The notes under the pieces: generated by a model
The model's database searches: none
What the model was told of the DNA's origin: nothing
What the model saw: the letters and a program-made list of their open reading frames with translations, nothing else
Translations under genes and position numbers: made by a program
Shown here: positions 18,142 through 26,282 of the stretch, piece by piece
Layout of the letters: each line of letters starts with the position of its first letter
How positions within the stretch are numbered: the first letter of the stretch is position 1
DNA from: a virus
Lineage: Duplodnaviria; Caudoviricetes
IMG/VR virus record: IMGVR_UViG_3300027858_000006
Location: 1 to 59,018 of that record
Length of the DNA stretch: 59,018 bases
Strand: one strand, 5' to 3'

Positions 18142-18525
18142 CTACTCCGAGTATGTCACCATCAATGTTCCGCTTGTGGCCCCGACACGGATGGCTTTGA
18201 AATTTGCAATGTCTGAGGCACTGTTCAAAGTGATTACATCCCCCGCCTCTATCAGGTGTCCCTCGGTTGTAGTGGGATCTGAACCGTCTTTCCAGATACG
18301 GATTTGTGCGGTCTCAAGCGTCATTGTGGCTTTTGTGGCGTCACCGTATGTCCCAGATGTCAAGCCTATGGCAGAATCAGCAACGGTGACAATCTCGTTT
18401 GCGCTCGCTTCATTCCCTGTGGCGCCAACCCCTACATATAAGGGTTTGTCAGCGCTACCACCAAGGATATACCCATCGTTATCTATATTTTGAACTCTTC
18501 CTGCTTTTGTTGCTTCTACTACCAT
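18142..18525 (-). CDS. putative head decoration/structural protein
   Basis: IRIWKDGSDPTTTEGHLIEAGD pattern; downstream of MCP. Confidence 0.55.
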   Translation of the reverse strand: MVVEATKAGRVQNIDNDGYILGGSADKPLYVGVGATGNEASANEIVTVADSAIGLTSGTYGDATKATMTLETAQIRIWKDGSDPTTTEGHLIEAGDVITLNSASDIANFKAIRVGATSGTLMVTYSE

Positions 18526-19084: not shown

Positions 19085-19570
19085 TTAGCTCACTGCTCTG
19101 GTTGCAACAATGATATTCACTTTATTAACAGTTGCATCCCCGAGAATGATACTATTCAATACATACAGCGCCTGTCCATCTGCGTGTGTGGCTGCGGTTG
19201 TGCCCATTGCACCCCTCCGGACCACCATGGTTGTATCAGTGTACTCCGATACTTCCATAATTTCATCATCGACACGGATATAAAACGGTGTCCCTGTTGC
19301 GGGCCACTGGGTTTTAGTCGATGTTGTTATGGTAACAGCCGTTTCGGTTGCTGTGACAGTTGCACCATGATTTATGGTAGTTGTAGGATACAGTGCTGCC
19401 GCTTCAGCCACGCCAGTAAGGTCCATTGTTGCGAACCACAATGCTGGATAACTCAACTCAATCCAGTCTGCCTGGGTGACTTTGTTCACTTCGAGTAAGT
19501 GTATAGACACATTGTCATTAGCTGAATCAAAATCAGATACGGGTGTTATCTGTGCTGCTGCCATGATCAA
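19085..19570 (-). CDS. putative capsid decoration protein
   Basis: IRVDDEIMEV...VRRGAMGTTAATHADG motif; immediately after MCP. Confidence 0.55.
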   Translation of the reverse strand: MIMAAAQITPVSDFDSANDNVSIHLLEVNKVTQADWIELSYPALWFATMDLTGVAEAAALYPTTTINHGATVTATETAVTITTSTKTQWPATGTPFYIRVDDEIMEVSEYTDTTMVVRRGAMGTTAATHADGQALYVLNSIILGDATVNKVNIIVATRAVS

Positions 19571-20616
19571 TCACATCCGTAAAGCATACCCATTCCTTCT
19601 GGGAACTTGTTCACCAAAGTCATGTAGACCTTCAAGAAGAACTTGTTAGAGTCGGTTGTCTGTGCAAGCCTCTGGAAAGTGATATCCTGTAATACCCGCT
19701 GTTCCAGGAAGTTTGTATTGATACACAGAATCCTTCTTGCGTCTGTGGTTGTCGGCATGAACTGACTTACAATCAATGGGAGCTCACCCACGACTGTATT
19801 TATCGAGAGTGCCTGCAAACCCCATGCAACTTTCGTATATGGATTACTATACCGAATGTTGTTGATGATCTGGTTTTTAAGATTGGAGGCCGTATACGGG
19901 TCTGTGATCAGCAGGTTCGGAGCGCCCTTATCGACAAAACAGTCATTTACCAGCGTGTCCACGTCTTCAAGTGTTGGAACTGCGCCGCTCATATTTGTGG
20001 TGTTCGCAGTCAATAGCTGAATCAGGCCGTCTGGCTGGTACTGGTTGGTGCCATTGTCGCCGTTGATCAGTGCTTCTTCAATTGTTTCATTGAGTTCCTG
20101 GGTTTTGGTCATCACGGCTCTGCGCATTGTGCTTTCAAAGTGCGCACCGCCGATCTCTGCTACACCGGTAACTCTGCCTGTGATCCTACAGTACCGTATT
20201 GTTGAAGATGCCAGTTCCTCGGTATCATCAGTTTCGGTGAGTGTCGGGTCTTCTGAACCCCATGCTGCTGCACCCCTTGCGGTCAATCTGAAGTAGTTGG
20301 CTGTAAGTCCGGTGTTGGTCACTTTGGGAATCAGGGCCTTGATTGGAGTGAATCTGCGTGTGATATCGATCACGCCAGAATCATATGCAAGTGGCATAGG
20401 CACATATCCCGCTGCTCCACTGGCCGCACCGACATTGGCCGCTTTCCCGAATGTGTTTTGTCTCCAGTCCTGTACTGCCTTGACCATATCAGGATAGTAG
20501 TCCTGTGCTGGCTGCATCGGGCCTTCGTACATTGTTTCGTTTGGAATGTCACCGAATGAAGATTTATAGACACTTGCTTCGTCTATCTCCCCGGGTGACA
20601 TGAATTGTCCGCCCAT
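19567..20616 (-). CDS. major capsid protein (HK97 fold)
   Basis: Follows protease and scaffold; AAWGSE, EEALINGD, PDGLIQ, INTVVGELPLIVSQFMP motifs; likely start ATG 20616 after GGGGGT SD. Confidence 0.9.
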   Translation of the reverse strand: MGGQFMSPGEIDEASVYKSSFGDIPNETMYEGPMQPAQDYYPDMVKAVQDWRQNTFGKAANVGAASGAAGYVPMPLAYDSGVIDITRRFTPIKALIPKVTNTGLTANYFRLTARGAAAWGSEDPTLTETDDTEELASSTIRYCRITGRVTGVAEIGGAHFESTMRRAVMTKTQELNETIEEALINGDNGTNQYQPDGLIQLLTANTTNMSGAVPTLEDVDTLVNDCFVDKGAPNLLITDPYTASNLKNQIINNIRYSNPYTKVAWGLQALSINTVVGELPLIVSQFMPTTTDARRILCINTNFLEQRVLQDITFQRLAQTTDSNKFFLKVYMTLVNKFPEGMGMLYGCD

Positions 20617-20617
20617 G

Positions 20618-21016
20618 TTATCTACCCCCTGCTTCAGGGAAAGAGGTATGGAATACACCCTTCATTACATCATACTTTCCAGGTTCGATCGTGCCGATGT
20701 CCTGTATACCTTTCAACATTGGCATGGATTCTATTGTTTCTACCTGCTTTTGAACTGTTTCCAGCTTCTTGGTTAGTTCATCTACAGTGCTCTTTTCAAC
20801 CAGGTCCGGCTTATCGGCTTCTGCCATCTTTTTGAACTCAGGGGCCATCTCATCTATCTGTCCCTTTAGTTCGGTGACGGCATCTGCCATCTTGTCAAAG
20901 TCTGCCTGCGGTACGGTAGGAACTTGTTCTTTTAACAGTCCCTCTACATTTGCCAATTTCTCAAAGAGAGCATTGTATTCATCTCTGGAAATCGGCTCTT
21001 TGTTTTCTGTTCCCAT
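20618..21016 (-). CDS. scaffold-like coiled-coil protein
   Basis: Charged heptad repeats; lies between protease and MCP. Confidence 0.65.
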   Translation of the reverse strand: MGTENKEPISRDEYNALFEKLANVEGLLKEQVPTVPQADFDKMADAVTELKGQIDEMAPEFKKMAEADKPDLVEKSTVDELTKKLETVQKQVETIESMPMLKGIQDIGTIEPGKYDVMKGVFHTSFPEAGGR

Positions 21017-21072
21017 ATGTTTATGCTCCTTGGTAGGATATCAGCCCGCACTTGCGGGTGTGAATGTGAAAT

Positions 21073-22143
21073 TCAGTCATCATAATCACCGAGCGTTTCA
21101 GTGATCTTTCTCAAACGATCGTTAACTTTCCCCATACGACTCGACAATGTGGAATAAATTGCCTTGTCTGCTTTGACTGTTTCTGTAATTTTACTCCCAG
21201 CACTTTTGTAATCCTTGTCCAGTTTCAGGTCCATCTTGATCATTTGGTCTGATATTTCGTGTTGTGCCGCATATAGCGATTTTCGTTCTAAGTTGAGTTT
21301 GTCTGTGAGTGTTTTATTTGCAGCAGTTTTGTGTCCCTTTACACCACTGCCCGGGCCACCCTTTAAGAAATCATCTGCTGCCTTACAAAAACCGTTAACT
21401 CCATTTTCATTACTTGATATATTACCACCTTCAAAACTATCTACTGCATCAATGAATTTCAGAACTGCTGGGTTTGGTTCTTTCTTATAATCCGGCTCAC
21501 CATCTGTTTCTACTTCATCATCCTGCGATATTGGGCAATTATCACCAACACAAGCAGCCTTCAATACCTGGAAAAACGAACCTTTTGCACTGGGTACATC
21601 TACAATAGAGGTTTCAAGCCATGATTTTACCACAATCTTACCGTCTTTGGATATTGTTTTGGCTTTACCGCCGATTGAAAAACCACGGAACAGACCTTCG
21701 TCTATCATACCCCTAAGCCATTCAAGTTTAGGACTTTTGCTGAGTTTGACCACAAGGAACGGTTTGGCTCCGAAGTTTGTAAGCCATTCCTTACCATCAG
21801 AATCTACATATTTCTCTACAACTTTCCCTATCGCACCTTTCCATTGTGGTGTGGTATCATGTAGGAGTTTGACTACAGGATTTTTCATATAGGTATCGAA
21901 CACGGCTTTGAGTGATTCCATATCCATGTTTTGTGAATCTTCATCCGTATCCCCATTGGACGCAAAACCAGCAAGATATAAGTGTCCGCCTTTATCTCCT
22001 ACTTTCTCAAATGTCATGTCATACTGCCAATCTATCATCTTTTCCACCTTGTTTTTGATTGAGGCACAGTACGCCTCTGGGTCATCCTTGTTTTGGTTCT
22101 TTTTCACACAATCATCGAAATTTGTATATTCTCCAAATGGCAT
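21073..22143 (-). CDS. prohead (maturation) protease, HK97/herpes family, with C-terminal extension
   Basis: GFAS..DTD, catalytic-type LLHD, GFSIGG and ETSIVDVPS motifs. Confidence 0.88.
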   Translation of the reverse strand: MPFGEYTNFDDCVKKNQNKDDPEAYCASIKNKVEKMIDWQYDMTFEKVGDKGGHLYLAGFASNGDTDEDSQNMDMESLKAVFDTYMKNPVVKLLHDTTPQWKGAIGKVVEKYVDSDGKEWLTNFGAKPFLVVKLSKSPKLEWLRGMIDEGLFRGFSIGGKAKTISKDGKIVVKSWLETSIVDVPSAKGSFFQVLKAACVGDNCPISQDDEVETDGEPDYKKEPNPAVLKFIDAVDSFEGGNISSNENGVNGFCKAADDFLKGGPGSGVKGHKTAANKTLTDKLNLERKSLYAAQHEISDQMIKMDLKLDKDYKSAGSKITETVKADKAIYSTLSSRMGKVNDRLRKITETLGDYDD

Positions 22144-22156
22144 TCAGTAGCCCCCA

Positions 22157-22816
22157 TTATCTTGCATAGTTTAACCCGCCCCTCTGTACATATTCAGGTA
22201 ATTCAAATAGTGGTATCTCAAAACAACGGTCATTGGGGCGAATATGAGGAATCATGTATTTGTCGCCTGTTTTAGGGTCGGTATACGGCTCATCAATCGC
22301 TGTAATTTGCCCGTCCATGCGTTTGCTGTCTTCGGCTGTCTTGTTGTCGAAATGTGCTTTCCATTGTCGGTATTTTGCGCCGCCTTCCTGCCAGCCGTCC
22401 CGCCTGCCTTCTTTCGTAGCAACCAATACTTGATCCCTGACTAATCGCTCAAGTTCCCATTCTTGGAATGAATCTGTGAATAGTGCTTTTACCCGTGTTT
22501 CGATCTGTGAAAGTGCTTCTTGCTCGGTCATTCCTGACTTGATAGCGGCATCCATCTCCTGGTATAGCTTGTCTGCATTGAATGCCAGATCGCCTTTTGC
22601 TCTGGCGATTGTACTCTCAGATAGTGCATGTGTGCGAAGCCCAATTGAAGCCAGTGCGTTTATATCTGGTTCGGGTGGTATTGTCATTTTCATATCGGCT
22701 GCGCCTGTGGCAAGTCCGAGTGAATATGCTTTGATTGCTGCGGATTCCATAAACTGGCTTAGTCTTGTGCCAATGATTTTATTGAGGATTGTACGGATTG
22801 TATCAAGTAGTGTCAT
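22157..22816 (-). CDS. MuF/SPP1 gp7-like minor head protein
   Basis: QWKAHFDNKT...MDGQI...PHIRPNDRC; lies between portal and protease. Confidence 0.75.
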   Translation of the reverse strand: MTLLDTIRTILNKIIGTRLSQFMESAAIKAYSLGLATGAADMKMTIPPEPDINALASIGLRTHALSESTIARAKGDLAFNADKLYQEMDAAIKSGMTEQEALSQIETRVKALFTDSFQEWELERLVRDQVLVATKEGRRDGWQEGGAKYRQWKAHFDNKTAEDSKRMDGQITAIDEPYTDPKTGDKYMIPHIRPNDRCFEIPLFELPEYVQRGGLNYAR

Positions 22817-24392
22817 ACAGTCGGTCCACCTCCTTCTTTGCCTGCTCCTGGAGTTCGGCTAACCAGTCCATAACCTCATCCATGGTTTTATCTTCAAGTT
22901 TTTTGGTCTTGATTGGCGTTTTTGGGCCGTCATATGCTGGTGGTTTAGGAACATATCCTGGTGTGCCTGAGAGTGCGCCCACATTTGCGGCTTTTAATGC
23001 TTCATCATCACCAAACAACGATTCCCAACCATTCTCTACATCTATGGCATCGTCACCGGTATCTCCATCTTCATCCTGTGATTCGCTGTCACCACTTGGA
23101 AGACTATACTTTTTATCTTCCCAGGTATCCAAGCCATCCCGTAACCGCAATTCATTTACTGAATCCAGGCCAGCCCCTAGCCTTGCGATATCGATGTCTG
23201 TTTGAACTTTCTTATCAGCAAGATCAATCTCATTAACAAACTCAAATTTCACATCGTCTGTAAAGTCAGACCAGACAACATGCCTGTTTAGCATGTCTTC
23301 AACAAGTTTTAGCCAAGGTCTTATCCCAGTAGACTTATGAATTTCCATTTGCTGGATACCTGTGGCTTTATTCAACTCTTCTGTAAATCCTAGTTCAGAA
23401 GGCGTTAAAGCAAACACCGCAAATACCATTTTAGCAAACCATCGCTGTGAATCAATAAACTGCATTTGCTGAGAAGTGAACGGCATGCTCTGAACCTTTG
23501 CACCGCCGCCGGTGACTATCCATTTGTTGTATTTTCGTGGACCCCGAAGTTTTGCTTCAAAGTATGCCTGTTGTCGTTTGAGTTCGTCCAGGTCCCGGAC
23601 GTCGGGTAAATCTATCTGGCCACCCACAAATAGCCCGTTCTTCCAGTATTTAGATTGTGCCAGCGTGGAATCCATCATATAATCTATAATCTGCTCTATG
23701 ATTTCTAAGAGTGCGATACCATATGGTCCCCTGCTCTGCGGGCTTTTCTGGAAATAGATAATTTCATCTGGACTGAATTCTATCGGTTTACCCTGTGGAT
23801 TAATCCAGGAGTACTGCCAGTATGTTTTTATCTGGCCAAACAGATTCGTATCCAGCATAAAGCTCCTACCATCCCGTGCGTATAATTGAACCGGCGGGAG
23901 TTTGGTACTTTTGAGCCTGTTGTTTTCTTTATCGTATGCGATTACTGGGTATGATTTTAGAATTACTCCAGCATCGTACTGGATGGCATCGGGTAATAAC
24001 ATTCTCAATACTTGTGAGAGTGGGTTATCCCACTGTTTACTATTAAAAAATTCTGTCGGTGTATCAATGTGTTCTTGCGGCACATCATCACCATTTTTCA
24101 CAGGTACGATGTTCCAATCTGCGCCTGCCAGCCGATCAACTATATGTTGTACGCACATGCGGACCCATACTGACTTTTCTAATGATTCCAGTCTATCAAA
24201 ATCAATATCCCGTGGTCTACCATATGGGGGAGCAAGCCAAAACGCATCTGTGAATACTGCCTTTCGCTTTATGCCGTCTTCATCGCCTGAATCCCACCAT
24301 GCACCGCCTGTGGTTTCCATGGAATCAAAGTCATACATCTTGATTCCCATTGCTGAACTGGCTTTTTGGATTAGTTTTTGGCGGAAATTCAT
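22803..24392 (-). CDS. portal protein
   Basis: WVRMCVQHIVDRLA, EIIYF...YGIALLE, FALTPSELG, SVNELRLRDGL; follows terminase. Confidence 0.9.
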   Translation of the reverse strand: MNFRQKLIQKASSAMGIKMYDFDSMETTGGAWWDSGDEDGIKRKAVFTDAFWLAPPYGRPRDIDFDRLESLEKSVWVRMCVQHIVDRLAGADWNIVPVKNGDDVPQEHIDTPTEFFNSKQWDNPLSQVLRMLLPDAIQYDAGVILKSYPVIAYDKENNRLKSTKLPPVQLYARDGRSFMLDTNLFGQIKTYWQYSWINPQGKPIEFSPDEIIYFQKSPQSRGPYGIALLEIIEQIIDYMMDSTLAQSKYWKNGLFVGGQIDLPDVRDLDELKRQQAYFEAKLRGPRKYNKWIVTGGGAKVQSMPFTSQQMQFIDSQRWFAKMVFAVFALTPSELGFTEELNKATGIQQMEIHKSTGIRPWLKLVEDMLNRHVVWSDFTDDVKFEFVNEIDLADKKVQTDIDIARLGAGLDSVNELRLRDGLDTWEDKKYSLPSGDSESQDEDGDTGDDAIDVENGWESLFGDDEALKAANVGALSGTPGYVPKPPAYDGPKTPIKTKKLEDKTMDEVMDWLAELQEQAKKEVDRLYDTT

Positions 24393-24653: not shown

Positions 24654-26282
24654 TCATGCTGACACCCCGATTAATTCAGTTGGGAATGTCTGAATTTTCT
24701 TATGGCAAACATCACAATATCCGTTCTTTGCAGGCATCCGGTTGGAGATTATACCATACTCTTCTCCACATTCACAGAATACATAATCGTAATCCTCTAC
24801 TGGTTTAATGGAATCCAATGGTGAATCTGAATTTATCAAACCGATTGTACTTACACTACCCAATGCAAGCCTGGTAACTGCAATTGCCACAGAATCAAGC
24901 ATATCATCATGTTCTGCAAATGGGAATTGCGCCCATTGCTGCCTAAACCCAGGCATACCTAGCATCTCAGTTTTCCTTAGAAGTACGCTTCCATTCTCAA
25001 AGTGTGGCGCTAGTGCGGTTAATTTCGTAATCTTGTCTTTGACTGTGAGTACACCAACAGCAGGAATCCATGTACTATCAGCTATGTGCTGCGCCATGGC
25101 TGCTTGATAGACATTATTCTCGATGAGTACCTCGGTAGCTCGCATCCCTGCGGCTGCCCACTCTTCATATGACGTGCAGATTTTATCATATGCTGTCGGA
25201 AAGTCCCATTTACCATGCCTAATCTCAATTATGTATAGCTTGCGCCTGTTGGCCTGATAGCCCACCAGAGCAATACATGTTTCATCAGCGTGTTCCTTTT
25301 CACTGATTGCCAGGTCTACACCTATATAGTATGTCAATTCATCCGGCAGGTCTGCCCAATCATAATACTGAAGCCAGTCAACATTCAAGTATTGGCCTTT
25401 CATGCCGGACGGGTCGTTCTGTTTTTCCCTGTCAAACATGATAGAACCGGCCTGTTGTCGATCAATCAATAGCTTCTTGATATCCCATACCTCTGGCCAA
25501 AGTACTTTTGAATCGCCAACAACTTCTACATCGCTTATGACTTCATTACCGTCTGAATCCGTGGTATAGATATATTCGTATGATTCCGGCCATTCTATAA
25601 TTGCTCTATCAATAGACCGGTGCCAGAGAGCATTATCTATCAACTGTTGATATAAGTCTGCGTAATGCTTTCTTGTACCAATTACAAACATCTGTGTGGT
25701 TGGCTCCACCAACTGCCCAATAGTCCCATAAAACCAGTTATTCATTGTTTCCATACGGGACTCTGTTTTTGTGTTTTCATCGTCGAGCATATCATCAATG
25801 ATGATTATATCAAAGTGCCCGCCAGTGATTGCTCCTAGTGCGCCAACTGCCTCAACAGTAGGGTCTTTGAGTTTACGCCCTGCGCTGTTCCTTTTACACC
25901 AGATCGCTCCGCCGTCACCTTTGTTGGTTATAAGCTCTCCATAATCATGTATAATAAGTTCATTGTGTTTGAGTTCGGTTCGGATTGTACCTAGTAGTTT
26001 GTTGGCCTGCCCTGATGTCTTACTGACCATCAAGACACGCACGTTTTGAATATTACATATTGCCCACACAGGTAAGGCATGGCAGAACACTGTAGTTTTT
26101 CCGTGGTCCCTAGGGCTCAATTGTAAGTGCCGATCTCTATCACAATATTTGTACCATCTGCCCTGGTGTGATGGAATGTTTAAGTCAAGATAATGTTTTG
26201 CAAAAAAAGCCTTTGAGTGCCTGGCAATGGTTTTTGGTGGTATGCTCTCAAGTGTTTTCAATTCTTGGGGACTTAAGGGCAT
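24654..26282 (-). CDS. terL: terminase large subunit
   Basis: Walker A PRDHGKTT, Walker B IIIIDD, RNase H-like GVDLA...DET...HDDMLDS; C-terminal Cys-rich tail. Confidence 0.95.
   Translation of the reverse strand: MPLSPQELKTLESIPPKTIARHSKAFFAKHYLDLNIPSHQGRWYKYCDRDRHLQLSPRDHGKTTVFCHALPVWAICNIQNVRVLMVSKTSGQANKLLGTIRTELKHNELIIHDYGELITNKGDGGAIWCKRNSAGRKLKDPTVEAVGALGAITGGHFDIIIIDDMLDDENTKTESRMETMNNWFYGTIGQLVEPTTQMFVIGTRKHYADLYQQLIDNALWHRSIDRAIIEWPESYEYIYTTDSDGNEVISDVEVVGDSKVLWPEVWDIKKLLIDRQQAGSIMFDREKQNDPSGMKGQYLNVDWLQYYDWADLPDELTYYIGVDLAISEKEHADETCIALVGYQANRRKLYIIEIRHGKWDFPTAYDKICTSYEEWAAAGMRATEVLIENNVYQAAMAQHIADSTWIPAVGVLTVKDKITKLTALAPHFENGSVLLRKTEMLGMPGFRQQWAQFPFAEHDDMLDSVAIAVTRLALGSVSTIGLINSDSPLDSIKPVEDYDYVFCECGEEYGIISNRMPAKNGYCDVCHKKIQTFPTELIGVSA

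Follow-up and report, generated by a model that had tools for sequence, protein, structure and literature searches.

A 22-residue copy of the major capsid protein junction near the C-terminal end of the portal protein in uncultured tailed phages

A capsid protein segment on the portal protein

Why should the portal protein of a tailed phage carry, near its C-terminal end, a piece of the phage's major capsid protein (MCP)? This question is raised by a complete virus record of 59,018 bases (IMGVR_UViG_3300027858_000006; Duplodnaviria; Caudoviricetes), which is called the window here and in which the head genes all lie on the minus strand in the order terminase, portal, MuF-like protein, protease, scaffold and MCP. 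The portal segment comprises residues 467-488, KAANVGALSGTPGYVPKPPAYD (translation of 22929-22994), and its counterpart is KAANVGAASGAAGYVPMPLAYD, residues 72-93 of the MCP open reading frame (ORF; translation of 20380-20445). A preliminary description of the window had reported 17 identical residues out of 22, nine of them with different codons, including Ser (AGT vs TCA); translation, BLASTP and a codon count reproduced both figures exactly. In the BLASTP comparison of the whole proteins the match is ungapped and has a pairwise E value of 4e-07.

A six-frame scan of the entire window found no further 22-mer scoring at least 28 against either copy, the best unrelated segment reaching 27, and in a separate window scan the portal copy scored 85 against the MCP copy, with 22 as the next-best match. 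The copy is beyond chance. At the DNA level 46 of the 66 bases are identical, and 8 of the 17 identical residues use the same codon in both genes. Another segment, K-A-I-R-V-G-A-T-S-G at 18181-18198 (minus strand), resembles the first 10 residues of the junction and lies 17 residues before the C-terminal end of a 127-aa protein (ORF 18142-18525). It is kept only in the closest relative (L086), other relatives end differently, and the likeness was rejected as probably a chance one.

Conservation of the copy in relatives

Relatives were gathered via MCP and portal alignments (viral, metagenome and genome contigs) and via whole-record searches, and are cited below by handles such as L001 or P0127. 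It turned out that the copy is carried by all of the 17 distinct contigs with an MCP at least 54% identical to that of the window and with the portal end in view (the window, L001, L002 + L087, L003, L052, L007, L010, L008, L021, L024, L013, L017, L044, L011, L012, L018 and L015). The copy of L015 is interrupted by the contig end, and 15 complete MCP/portal pairs were compared. The portal copy shares 9-17 of 22 residues with the MCP copy of its own genome and the DNA of the two copies 30-46 of 66 bases, while identical residues with different codons are at least as many as those with the same codon in 11 of the 15 pairs. K1, A2, G10, G13 and P18 are invariant in all 30 copies, and D22 is found in 28 of them.

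Besides, the portal copies have a consensus of their own: position 8 is mostly L/V, position 11 is T/E/K, position 12 is mostly P, position 14 is F or Y in 13 of 15 and Ala in two, and position 19 is never the L/I of the MCP. Since the portal copy keeps its own consensus, the two copies are not homogenised. In six close relatives, pN/pS (the ratio of non-synonymous to synonymous differences per site) of the 22-mer is 0.04-0.30 at a pS of 0.46-1.05, and that of the rest of the portal tail is 0.07-0.29, with synonymous sites near saturation. The copy is old, conserved and under purifying selection.

Nine distant contigs, with MCPs 27-38% identical to that of the window, were examined as well. 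The portal-MuF fusion protein of L085, from a clade with MCPs 34% identical, copies the clade's own Lys-proximal 17 residues including one extra residue, and this local alignment reaches a score of 58, compared with at most 53 after shuffling. L063 and L077 keep only Lys-Ala and 2-3 residues matching their own MCP, and a junction copy was not found in six of the nine distant contigs.

These comparisons agree with the statement of the preliminary description that the match is kept at the protein level and does not come from a recent DNA duplication, as the DNA identity is 30-46 of 66 bases, the codons have diverged and the portal has a separate consensus. The motif is not missing from the portals of close relatives, since it occurs in close and in fairly distant ones, and the likeness is not confined to the 4-5 residues of a cleavage site, as the shared G10, G13, P18 and, mostly, D22 span the whole 22-mer. 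Co-variation of the two segments, a check suggested in that description, has a more divided outcome. The own-pair identity sum is 203 against 179.9 +/- 7.2 after shuffling (p 0.0004; 15 genomes, shared ancestry uncorrected), and with 12 pairs p is 0.013. The signal comes from positions 3, 15, 16, 20 and 21 and mostly reflects one deep split that sets a V-P-M-P..A-Y-D type apart from an A-x-T-P-x-V-W-D type, L085 being a third type. So the co-variation is significant by shuffling, but it was rejected as proof of coupling because it rests mainly on this one split plus L085.

Searches among known phages were also made. In cultured phages, the portal matched 673 records, every one of them with less than 60% identity and with less than 80% of the query aligned, and tblastn with the MCP gave no match. 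A search of PDB sequences with the MCP profile had 0 matches at E <= 0.01, with SPO1 Gp6.1 (E 0.29) as the only candidate, in an alignment that does not cover the N-terminal arm (N-arm). Two of the portal-MuF fusions matched among the cultured phages, those of HSTV-1 and Arthrobacter phage Sonali, have no segment in common with their own MCPs: their local alignments score 43 and 47, where shuffled sequences reach up to 66 and 63. In the open-access literature (PMC and bioRxiv), no description of an MCP junction or N-arm copy on a portal was found.

The copy as the front of a portable module

The portal gene (22803..24392, minus strand; 529 aa) matches PF04860 Phage_portal (E 8.6e-31, residues 77-417) with 107.7 bits, above the gathering cut-off of 39.1, and also PHROG 2662 and PHROG 12, both portal families. 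The portal domain is followed by an acidic hypervariable linker of 49 residues (residues 418-466; 22995..23141, minus strand), delimited by the alignment of relatives, in which it varies in length and content, is acidic, basic or interrupted by inserted domains, and carries ~1 bit per position. Then comes the junction copy (22929..22994, minus strand), and after it the remainder up to the C-terminus (residues 489-529; 22806..22928, minus strand), a basic stretch and a predicted amphipathic helix that can be aligned in 15 relatives. Judged by these alignments, the 22-mer is the front of a conserved, mobile module of ~62 residues made up of junction motif, basic stretch and amphipathic helix.

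To see how far this module reaches, its profile was run against 1.84 billion cluster representatives (clusters at 50% identity). It matched 43 clusters at E <= 0.001, of which 19 had E <= 1e-10; one of the 43 is an MCP fragment, and the small carriers among them may partly be gene fragments. A single-sequence search with portal residues 450-529 in a set of 5.8 billion proteins found 5 proteins only. Among the carrier clusters, Lys is present in 38 of 38, Ala follows it in 36 of 38 and position -2 is hydrophobic in 34 of 38, while the remaining upstream positions are hydrophobic in only 0-16 of 38. In the 38 carriers, each of the 15 positions upstream of Lys carries ~1-2 bits of information, and Lys itself 4.3 bits.

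We scanned 24 carriers with Pfam and found a portal domain in 13, with the module at or near the C-terminal end or with further domains after it. No portal domain was detected in four (P0127, P0133, P0134 and P0138), and a fifth carrier, P0139, has no Pfam portal match but begins with a portal C-terminal end. The domains that accompany the module are diverse. For instance, a nucleotidyltransferase and two zincin-like H-E-x-x-H regions occur in P0138; in P0139 a portal C-terminal end leads into a further domain, then the module and then a DRAT-like ADP-ribosyltransferase; P0134 combines the module with a zincin-like region and a GNAT domain; and in P0127 the module is followed by motif B (see below) and a JAB/RadC-like domain. 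The latter domain, of ~190 aa, occurs in L087 (9001-11381), L088 (807-3216) and P0127; it was named by eye from H-N-H-P...S-x-x-D and had no match in Pfam, PHROG or NCBIfam. In L087 and L088 it is fused to the portal through motif B, and the module resides in a separate small ORF behind a Cys-rich N-terminal part, where it is still under purifying selection. Long inserts separate portal and module in L098/P0130, P0128 and P0142.

The capsid protein side of the match

The MCP gene (19567..20658, minus strand; ORF of 363 aa) was identified by PF17236 SU10_MCP (E 8.2e-22), its 78.5 bits lying above the gathering cut-off of 24.1. The true start is very likely Met15 of the listed ORF, at ~20616, because homologues of 340-358 aa begin there; with this start, Lys72 of the ORF is Lys58 of the real MCP. 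According to homologue alignments, Met15-Gly71 (20446..20616, minus strand) form a putative propeptide, with a conserved Y-K-x-S-F-G-D-x-P-x-E-T followed by a variable linker, and residues 72-93 (20380..20445, minus strand) form the junction and the start of the N-arm. An extended form of the N-terminal motif, Y-[KR]-x-S-F-G-D-x-P-[DN]-x-T-x-Y (window 20500-20616, minus strand), is also found in the otherwise very distant MCP of the haloarchaeal virus HSTV-1 (L111:9575-10816), and it may be an old propeptide element common to bacterial and archaeal viruses.

Among the 120 best MCP homologues (91% down to 47% identity), 118 carry the junction segment, and the two exceptions are truncated at the N-terminus. 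In an alignment of 33 homologues K72, G84, P89 and D93 are invariant, and there is not one conserved column from residue 37 up to Lys. Of these 118 homologues, 116 have Ala directly behind Lys and 117 have a hydrophobic residue at -2 (L 49, F 44, I 18, V 4, Y 2). In the AlphaFold model (predicted local distance difference test score, pLDDT, of 71.9) the HK97 fold begins at about residue 99, and its fold matches are the capsids of SPO1, T5/DT57C and SU10 and encapsulins. The stretch around the motif (residues 70-98) lacks secondary structure and has a pLDDT below 50, and since the segment is disordered in the model, it is likely to be accessible. The layout looks like propeptide, linker, junction and N-arm.

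Prohead protease, scaffold and motif B

A protease that could act on such a junction is encoded nearby. The gene at 21073..22143 (minus strand; 356 aa) consists of a protease domain (residues 1-195) and a C-terminal extension, and was recognised by its AlphaFold model (pLDDT 85.3), for which the best PDB fold match is T4 gp21 (5jbl, E 3.9e-4, prob 1.0), followed by the proteases of human cytomegalovirus, Epstein-Barr virus and Kaposi's sarcoma-associated herpesvirus. D67, H95 and S156 are invariant in 20 homologues. The protease is barely visible to sequence libraries (Pfam S78_2, E 0.0093, under the cut-off), and the sole match of its domain in a PDB sequence search, a glycosidase, was discarded as spurious. 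The predicted structure identifies this neighbouring gene as coding for a prohead protease with the HK97 / T4 gp21 / herpesvirus assemblin fold.

The preliminary description had pointed to LKAACVG just after the catalytic domain of this protease. KAACVG (residues 195-200; 21544..21561, minus strand) indeed lies directly after the last beta strand of the AlphaFold model, at the end of the protease fold, and is a candidate self-cleavage site; what it has in common with the MCP is limited to Lys-Ala-Ala and small residues. It belongs to a family-wide motif, V-L-K-[AS]-A-[CG]-x-G-(D)-N-C-P, and the domain ends with V-L-K-[AS]-A in most of 17 homologues, also where the portal has no copy (L019 and L020). 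Across the window (21529-21561, minus strand) and the protease ORFs of 16 loci, the family-wide form has two Cys, V-L-K-[AS]-A-C-x-G-D-N-C-P; the sub-clade of L004, L007, L008, L009 and L010 has lost the Cys pair and kept V-L-K-[AC]-A-G.

The C-terminal extension of the protease contains, as a single occurrence, motif B, K-GGPGSGVKGHKT (21325..21363, minus strand), which represents a second class of Lys-small-residue junction and was defined from instances in relatives with the consensus K-G-G-[PV]-G-S-G-[IVQ]-K-G-H-[RKT]-T. In relatives, the portal, MuF and protease extensions have motif B as the linker from one domain to the next; Lys precedes each of 33 distinct instances, and position -2 is hydrophobic in 32. 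It may be a second class of cut site, or a tag with which each cargo domain begins. Besides the window, carriers of motif B are L001, L007, L010, L017, L087, L088, L100, P0127, P0133, P0134, P0138, P0139 and P0141.

The scaffolding protein gene (20618..21016, minus strand; 132 aa) was assigned from weak matches to Pfam PF06810 and PHROG 73, from its position and from its fusion to the protease C-terminus in relatives (L012, L013, L016, L019, L020, L063, L077 and L085). It has an invariant K102-G103-x-x-D106 (window 20699-20713, minus strand), with Q at the fourth place in 9 of 11 sequences, preceded by P-x-[LMIV] and followed by a conserved C-terminal end. A different segment of the scaffold, K-L-A-N-V-E-G, was rejected as a cut site, as it is not kept beyond close relatives and only Val24 is invariant.

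Proposed function and alternative explanations

What is the portal copy for? It is a real, ancient and selected feature, and most likely a shared maturation junction on a portable module. In a processing site, conservation typically starts at the residue of the cut, with a hydrophobic residue at -2 and variable positions upstream, and this is the pattern seen at the Lys here. One short motif recurs at domain boundaries and in flexible regions (117 of 118 MCPs, 34 of 38 carriers and 32 of 33 instances of motif B with the hydrophobic -2), and the junctions of MCP, portal tail, protease, scaffold and motif B fit one predicted code, hydrophobic-x-Lys followed by Ala or Gly. The preliminary description had proposed K|AAxVG as the maturation site common to the two proteins. 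The core of this proposal is favoured: Lys-Ala is invariant in the 15 pairs and found in 116 of 118 MCPs and 36 of 38 carriers, conservation starts at Lys in both families after a hydrophobic -2, the MCP segment is disordered in the model, and a protease of the gp21/assemblin fold is encoded next to it, all of which supports a predicted cleavage indirectly.

We therefore put forward, with roughly even confidence for and against, a shared cut site after Lys combined with a copied downstream segment for recognition or docking. The module follows the variable linker in the C-terminal region of the portal, the end that in portal proteins faces the capsid interior, and its motif copies the junction between putative propeptide and N-arm of the MCP. 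The phage's own prohead protease would cut after the invariant Lys in both MCP and portal, by the code hydrophobic-x-Lys|Ala; it would also cut itself and, in relatives, the enzyme domains that follow the portal, in each case at a related Lys|Ala or Lys|Gly junction. In this way the portal tail would be trimmed in step with the shell and a peptide of ~62 residues set free, or, in relatives, the cargo behind the portal. The part after the cut would be a Gly/Ala/Ser-rich stretch and then G-[YF]-x-x-x-P-x-x-[YVW]-D, and these residues may be copied because they are read at the MCP junction, either by the protease or by a partner, for example the scaffold, that the MCP also has.

Several points weigh against the shared cut site. 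No member of the group is a cultured phage, so that cleavage, binding and location are predictions from sequence; the 25 best of the 673 cultured portal matches are at most 26% identical, and their alignments end at about residue 420-432, before the tail. The portal of the window itself has its hydrophobic residue at -1 (Leu466) and not at -2. L019 and L020, with MCPs 48% identical to that of the window, have the MCP motif, the protease motif and a portal, but no portal copy. A protease active site usually reads ~4-8 residues, and a conserved downstream side of 21 residues needs a further reason; since the protease's own site and motif B are without the distal half, this half is not required for every cut. 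It would also be odd for a tail made only for removal to be kept as a separate small ORF, as it is in L087 and L088. The co-variation is consistent with coupled evolution and, being largely one deep split, is no proof of functional coupling. Complex prediction with the MCP core in two copies (residues 94-363), the scaffold and the portal tail as partner gave scores of 0.00 and 0.00, which speaks neither for nor against binding.

For the distal half, extended recognition or docking by the protease competes with mimicry of the MCP N-arm toward a shared partner. In the latter explanation the segment, cut or uncut, would bind the partner of the MCP N-arm, that is, the scaffold or the inner face of the shell, which we judge rather unlikely, and by this binding the portal tail, and in relatives the attached cargo enzymes, would be loaded into the head or kept there, which we judge equally so. 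It would resemble the capsid-targeting sequences of T4 or the cargo-loading peptides of encapsulins. A narrower version is less likely again: the module would be a portable N-arm mimic, on which the protease exposes the same new N-terminus as on the MCP, and the peptide would plug into the N-arm site on the scaffold or the shell interior. With the same lesser likelihood, the mimic would anchor the portal tail inside the head, and in relatives also enzymes meant for injection, as a capsid-derived address tag modelled on the arm of the shell protein. Such addressing is supported by the distal G13, [YF]14, P18, [YVW]21 and D22, which are kept even where the Lys-proximal N-V-G is lost (L003, L007 and L010); by the joint travel of module and helix as a unit, in proteins with zincin, nucleotidyltransferase, DRAT-like, GNAT and JAB-like domains and in small stand-alone ORFs, with purifying selection persisting off the portal; and by co-variation at positions 3, 15, 16, 20 and 21 that follows the MCP type of the same genome. 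In P22 and T7, according to the accessible text of a published account, scaffold binding takes place close to spine helix and N-arm, and contact between portal and scaffold is needed for portal incorporation (PMC10275583). However, positions 8, 11-12 and 19 differ systematically between the two copies, which are therefore not interchangeable, and distant relatives keep only the Lys-proximal part (L085) or 4-5 residues (L063 and L077), as would be expected for a cut site; the binding itself is a prediction.

The remaining explanations fare worse. The whole 22-mer is conserved beyond the junction and cleavage is a prediction, so one might dispense with proteolysis altogether and regard the segment as a shared structural or binding element, for example for the same chaperone-like partner, with Lys-Ala kept for contact. 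This is improbable, as conservation begins at Lys, after a hydrophobic -2 and variable upstream positions, in two unrelated families and in motif B; as the MCP has a conserved N-terminal region and then a variable, propeptide-like linker ending at Lys; and as a prohead protease is present. Hardly better, and in our estimate slightly more improbable, is the model of the preliminary description, in which twelve attached portal tails act as surrogate N-arms at the sites of the missing pentamer or nucleate shell assembly. The copy does match the start of the MCP N-arm, and the flexible linker of 49 residues (418-466) might let the tail reach the shell. Portal vertices of other phages need extra contacts, and in the available part of the P74-26 study a portal-vertex protein threads an N-arm into the MCP beta sheet (PMC12407722). 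But a cut at Lys-Ala, which the same description proposed, would sever the arm from the portal. Moreover, relatives have the module behind inserted enzyme domains, in separate ORFs behind an inserted domain (L087 and L088), behind long inserts (L098/P0130, P0128 and P0142) and in proteins without a detected portal domain (P0127, P0133, P0134 and P0138). A portal copy is missing from L019, L020 and most distant relatives, whose MCPs do have the motif or the fold. We set this part of the preliminary description aside. Finally, short Gly/Ala/Pro-rich segments can look alike by composition, and a duplication or gene conversion might leave a functionless, decaying relic. The probability of either is very small in view of the pairwise E value of 4e-7, the presence in 17 of 17 relatives, the 43 clusters, the pN/pS of 0.04-0.30 and the diverged codon usage.

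Other features of the head genes

The large terminase gene (24654..26282, minus strand; Pfam PF03237) forms the upstream end of the head module. The gene of the MuF-like minor head protein (22157..22816, minus strand; 219 aa) was identified by Pfam PF04233 (E 1.6e-08) and PHROG 2662, and it overlaps the portal gene by 14 bases (22803-22816, minus strand). PHROG 2662 is a portal-MuF fusion family and is matched by both the portal and the MuF-like ORF; because both halves match it, the window has the split form of a portal-MuF gene. The fused form is found in L053, L069, L076, L085, HSTV-1 and Sonali. In L101 (9001-11137) and P0166, an intein-like insert splits the portal gene within its conserved G-F-T-E-D-L-N region; the insert has an endonuclease of the LAGLIDADG type, which in P0166 gives a weak Pfam match to LAGLIDADG_3. 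The closest relative in the genome collection (L086; MCP 89% identical) is a contig of 59,785 bases in a bin of a Planctomycetota metagenome-assembled genome (MAG), and the homologue P0017 is named from a MAG of Candidatus Dojkabacteria.

Significance and comparison with known systems

If cleavage at Lys|Ala is true, a cutting code, hydrophobic-x-Lys|Ala/Gly, would be available for a large and wholly uncultured phage group. The mature ends of shell, portal, protease and cargo would then become predictable, which would help to annotate the portal, MuF and protease polyproteins of metagenomes. The 21-residue downstream copy with its helix offers a testable handle on how a head protease chooses its substrates and how proteins are addressed to the head interior, and a natural short tag that loads or trims proteins in an HK97-fold shell would be of use for engineered capsids and encapsulin-like containers.

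Among known systems, the HK97 capsid protein has a scaffolding domain ahead of the mature domain of 281 residues, and the linking N-arm is flexible, as the accessible text of the source describes (PMC10275583). The MCP of the window likewise has the HK97 fold and an N-terminal part ahead of a flexible N-arm, but this phage has a separate scaffolding gene. The maturation cut of HK97 follows Lys, and to our knowledge no junction copy has been reported on its portal.

The nearest precedent for the portal-vertex model of the preliminary description is the portal-vertex protein of Thermus phage P74-26, whose extra N-arm joins the MCP beta sheet at the portal vertex and offsets the missing penton; according to the same available part of that study, it is however a separate protein bound outside the shell, and neither part of the portal nor a copy of the MCP N-arm (PMC12407722). 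In 80alpha, as far as the accessible account goes, the capsid and scaffolding proteins share the leader of ribosomal protein L27, which is cut by the host protease Prp (PMC5744158). The likeness is that non-homologous assembly proteins have a conserved sequence at one cleavage site. The shared leader of 80alpha, however, is N-terminal, lies on the removed side and is handled by a host protease, whereas in the window the likeness is mainly on the downstream, retained side, after Lys, and a phage protease is present and presumably acts; the window thus does not have a leader of the 80alpha/Prp type (no search for Prp was made).

Another comparison is with proteins that are carried in the head. 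The capsid-targeting sequence (CTS) of T4, as described in the accessible text, is a short peptide, linked to a cut by the protease, through which unrelated proteins enter the prohead (PMC9026906). The module here similarly accompanies varied enzyme domains. The CTS, however, is a 10-residue N-terminal propeptide that is removed, whereas the module is C-terminal or internal, has ~62 residues, is conserved after the presumed cut and copies the MCP, and its targeting is putative; it is not a CTS of the T4 type. Polyvalent proteins, which were described by Iyer, Burroughs, Anand, de Souza and Aravind in 2017, are packaged in the phage head, and the available part of that paper contains no mention of a junction copy or of motif B (PMC5512222). 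Relatives of the window resemble them by stringing enzyme domains behind the portal, the MuF protein and the protease, with two or more effector or enzyme domains in one polypeptide in P0138, P0139, P0134 and L087/P0127. The window differs in this respect: its portal consists of the portal domain and the 62-residue tail only, and its MuF protein of 219 aa has PF04233 alone, without an effector.

The closest parallels to a shared cut site are phages with one head protease for many substrates. In T4, where gp21 cuts at L/I-x-E, and in phiKZ, a single protease cuts shell, portal or internal proteins and itself at a short motif, according to the accessible text (PMC9026906), and for gp245 of SPN3US, with A-x-E, the available account lists the MCP, the portal, ejection proteins and the protease itself as cut at one short motif (PMC10052503). 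The window would be similar, with a protease of the gp21/assemblin fold and with hydrophobic-x-Lys|Ala/Gly as the signature that MCP, portal tail, protease and linkers have in common. The residue before the cut (P1) would be Lys here and is Glu there, at a cleavage that is predicted for the window from its sequence. The portal of SPN3US, in the same account, loses an N-terminal propeptide, whereas that of the window is marked at its C-terminal end. In conclusion, a shared cut motif is a known arrangement, and what is unusual here is that the likeness runs 21 residues past the presumed cut and travels together with a helix as a portable module.

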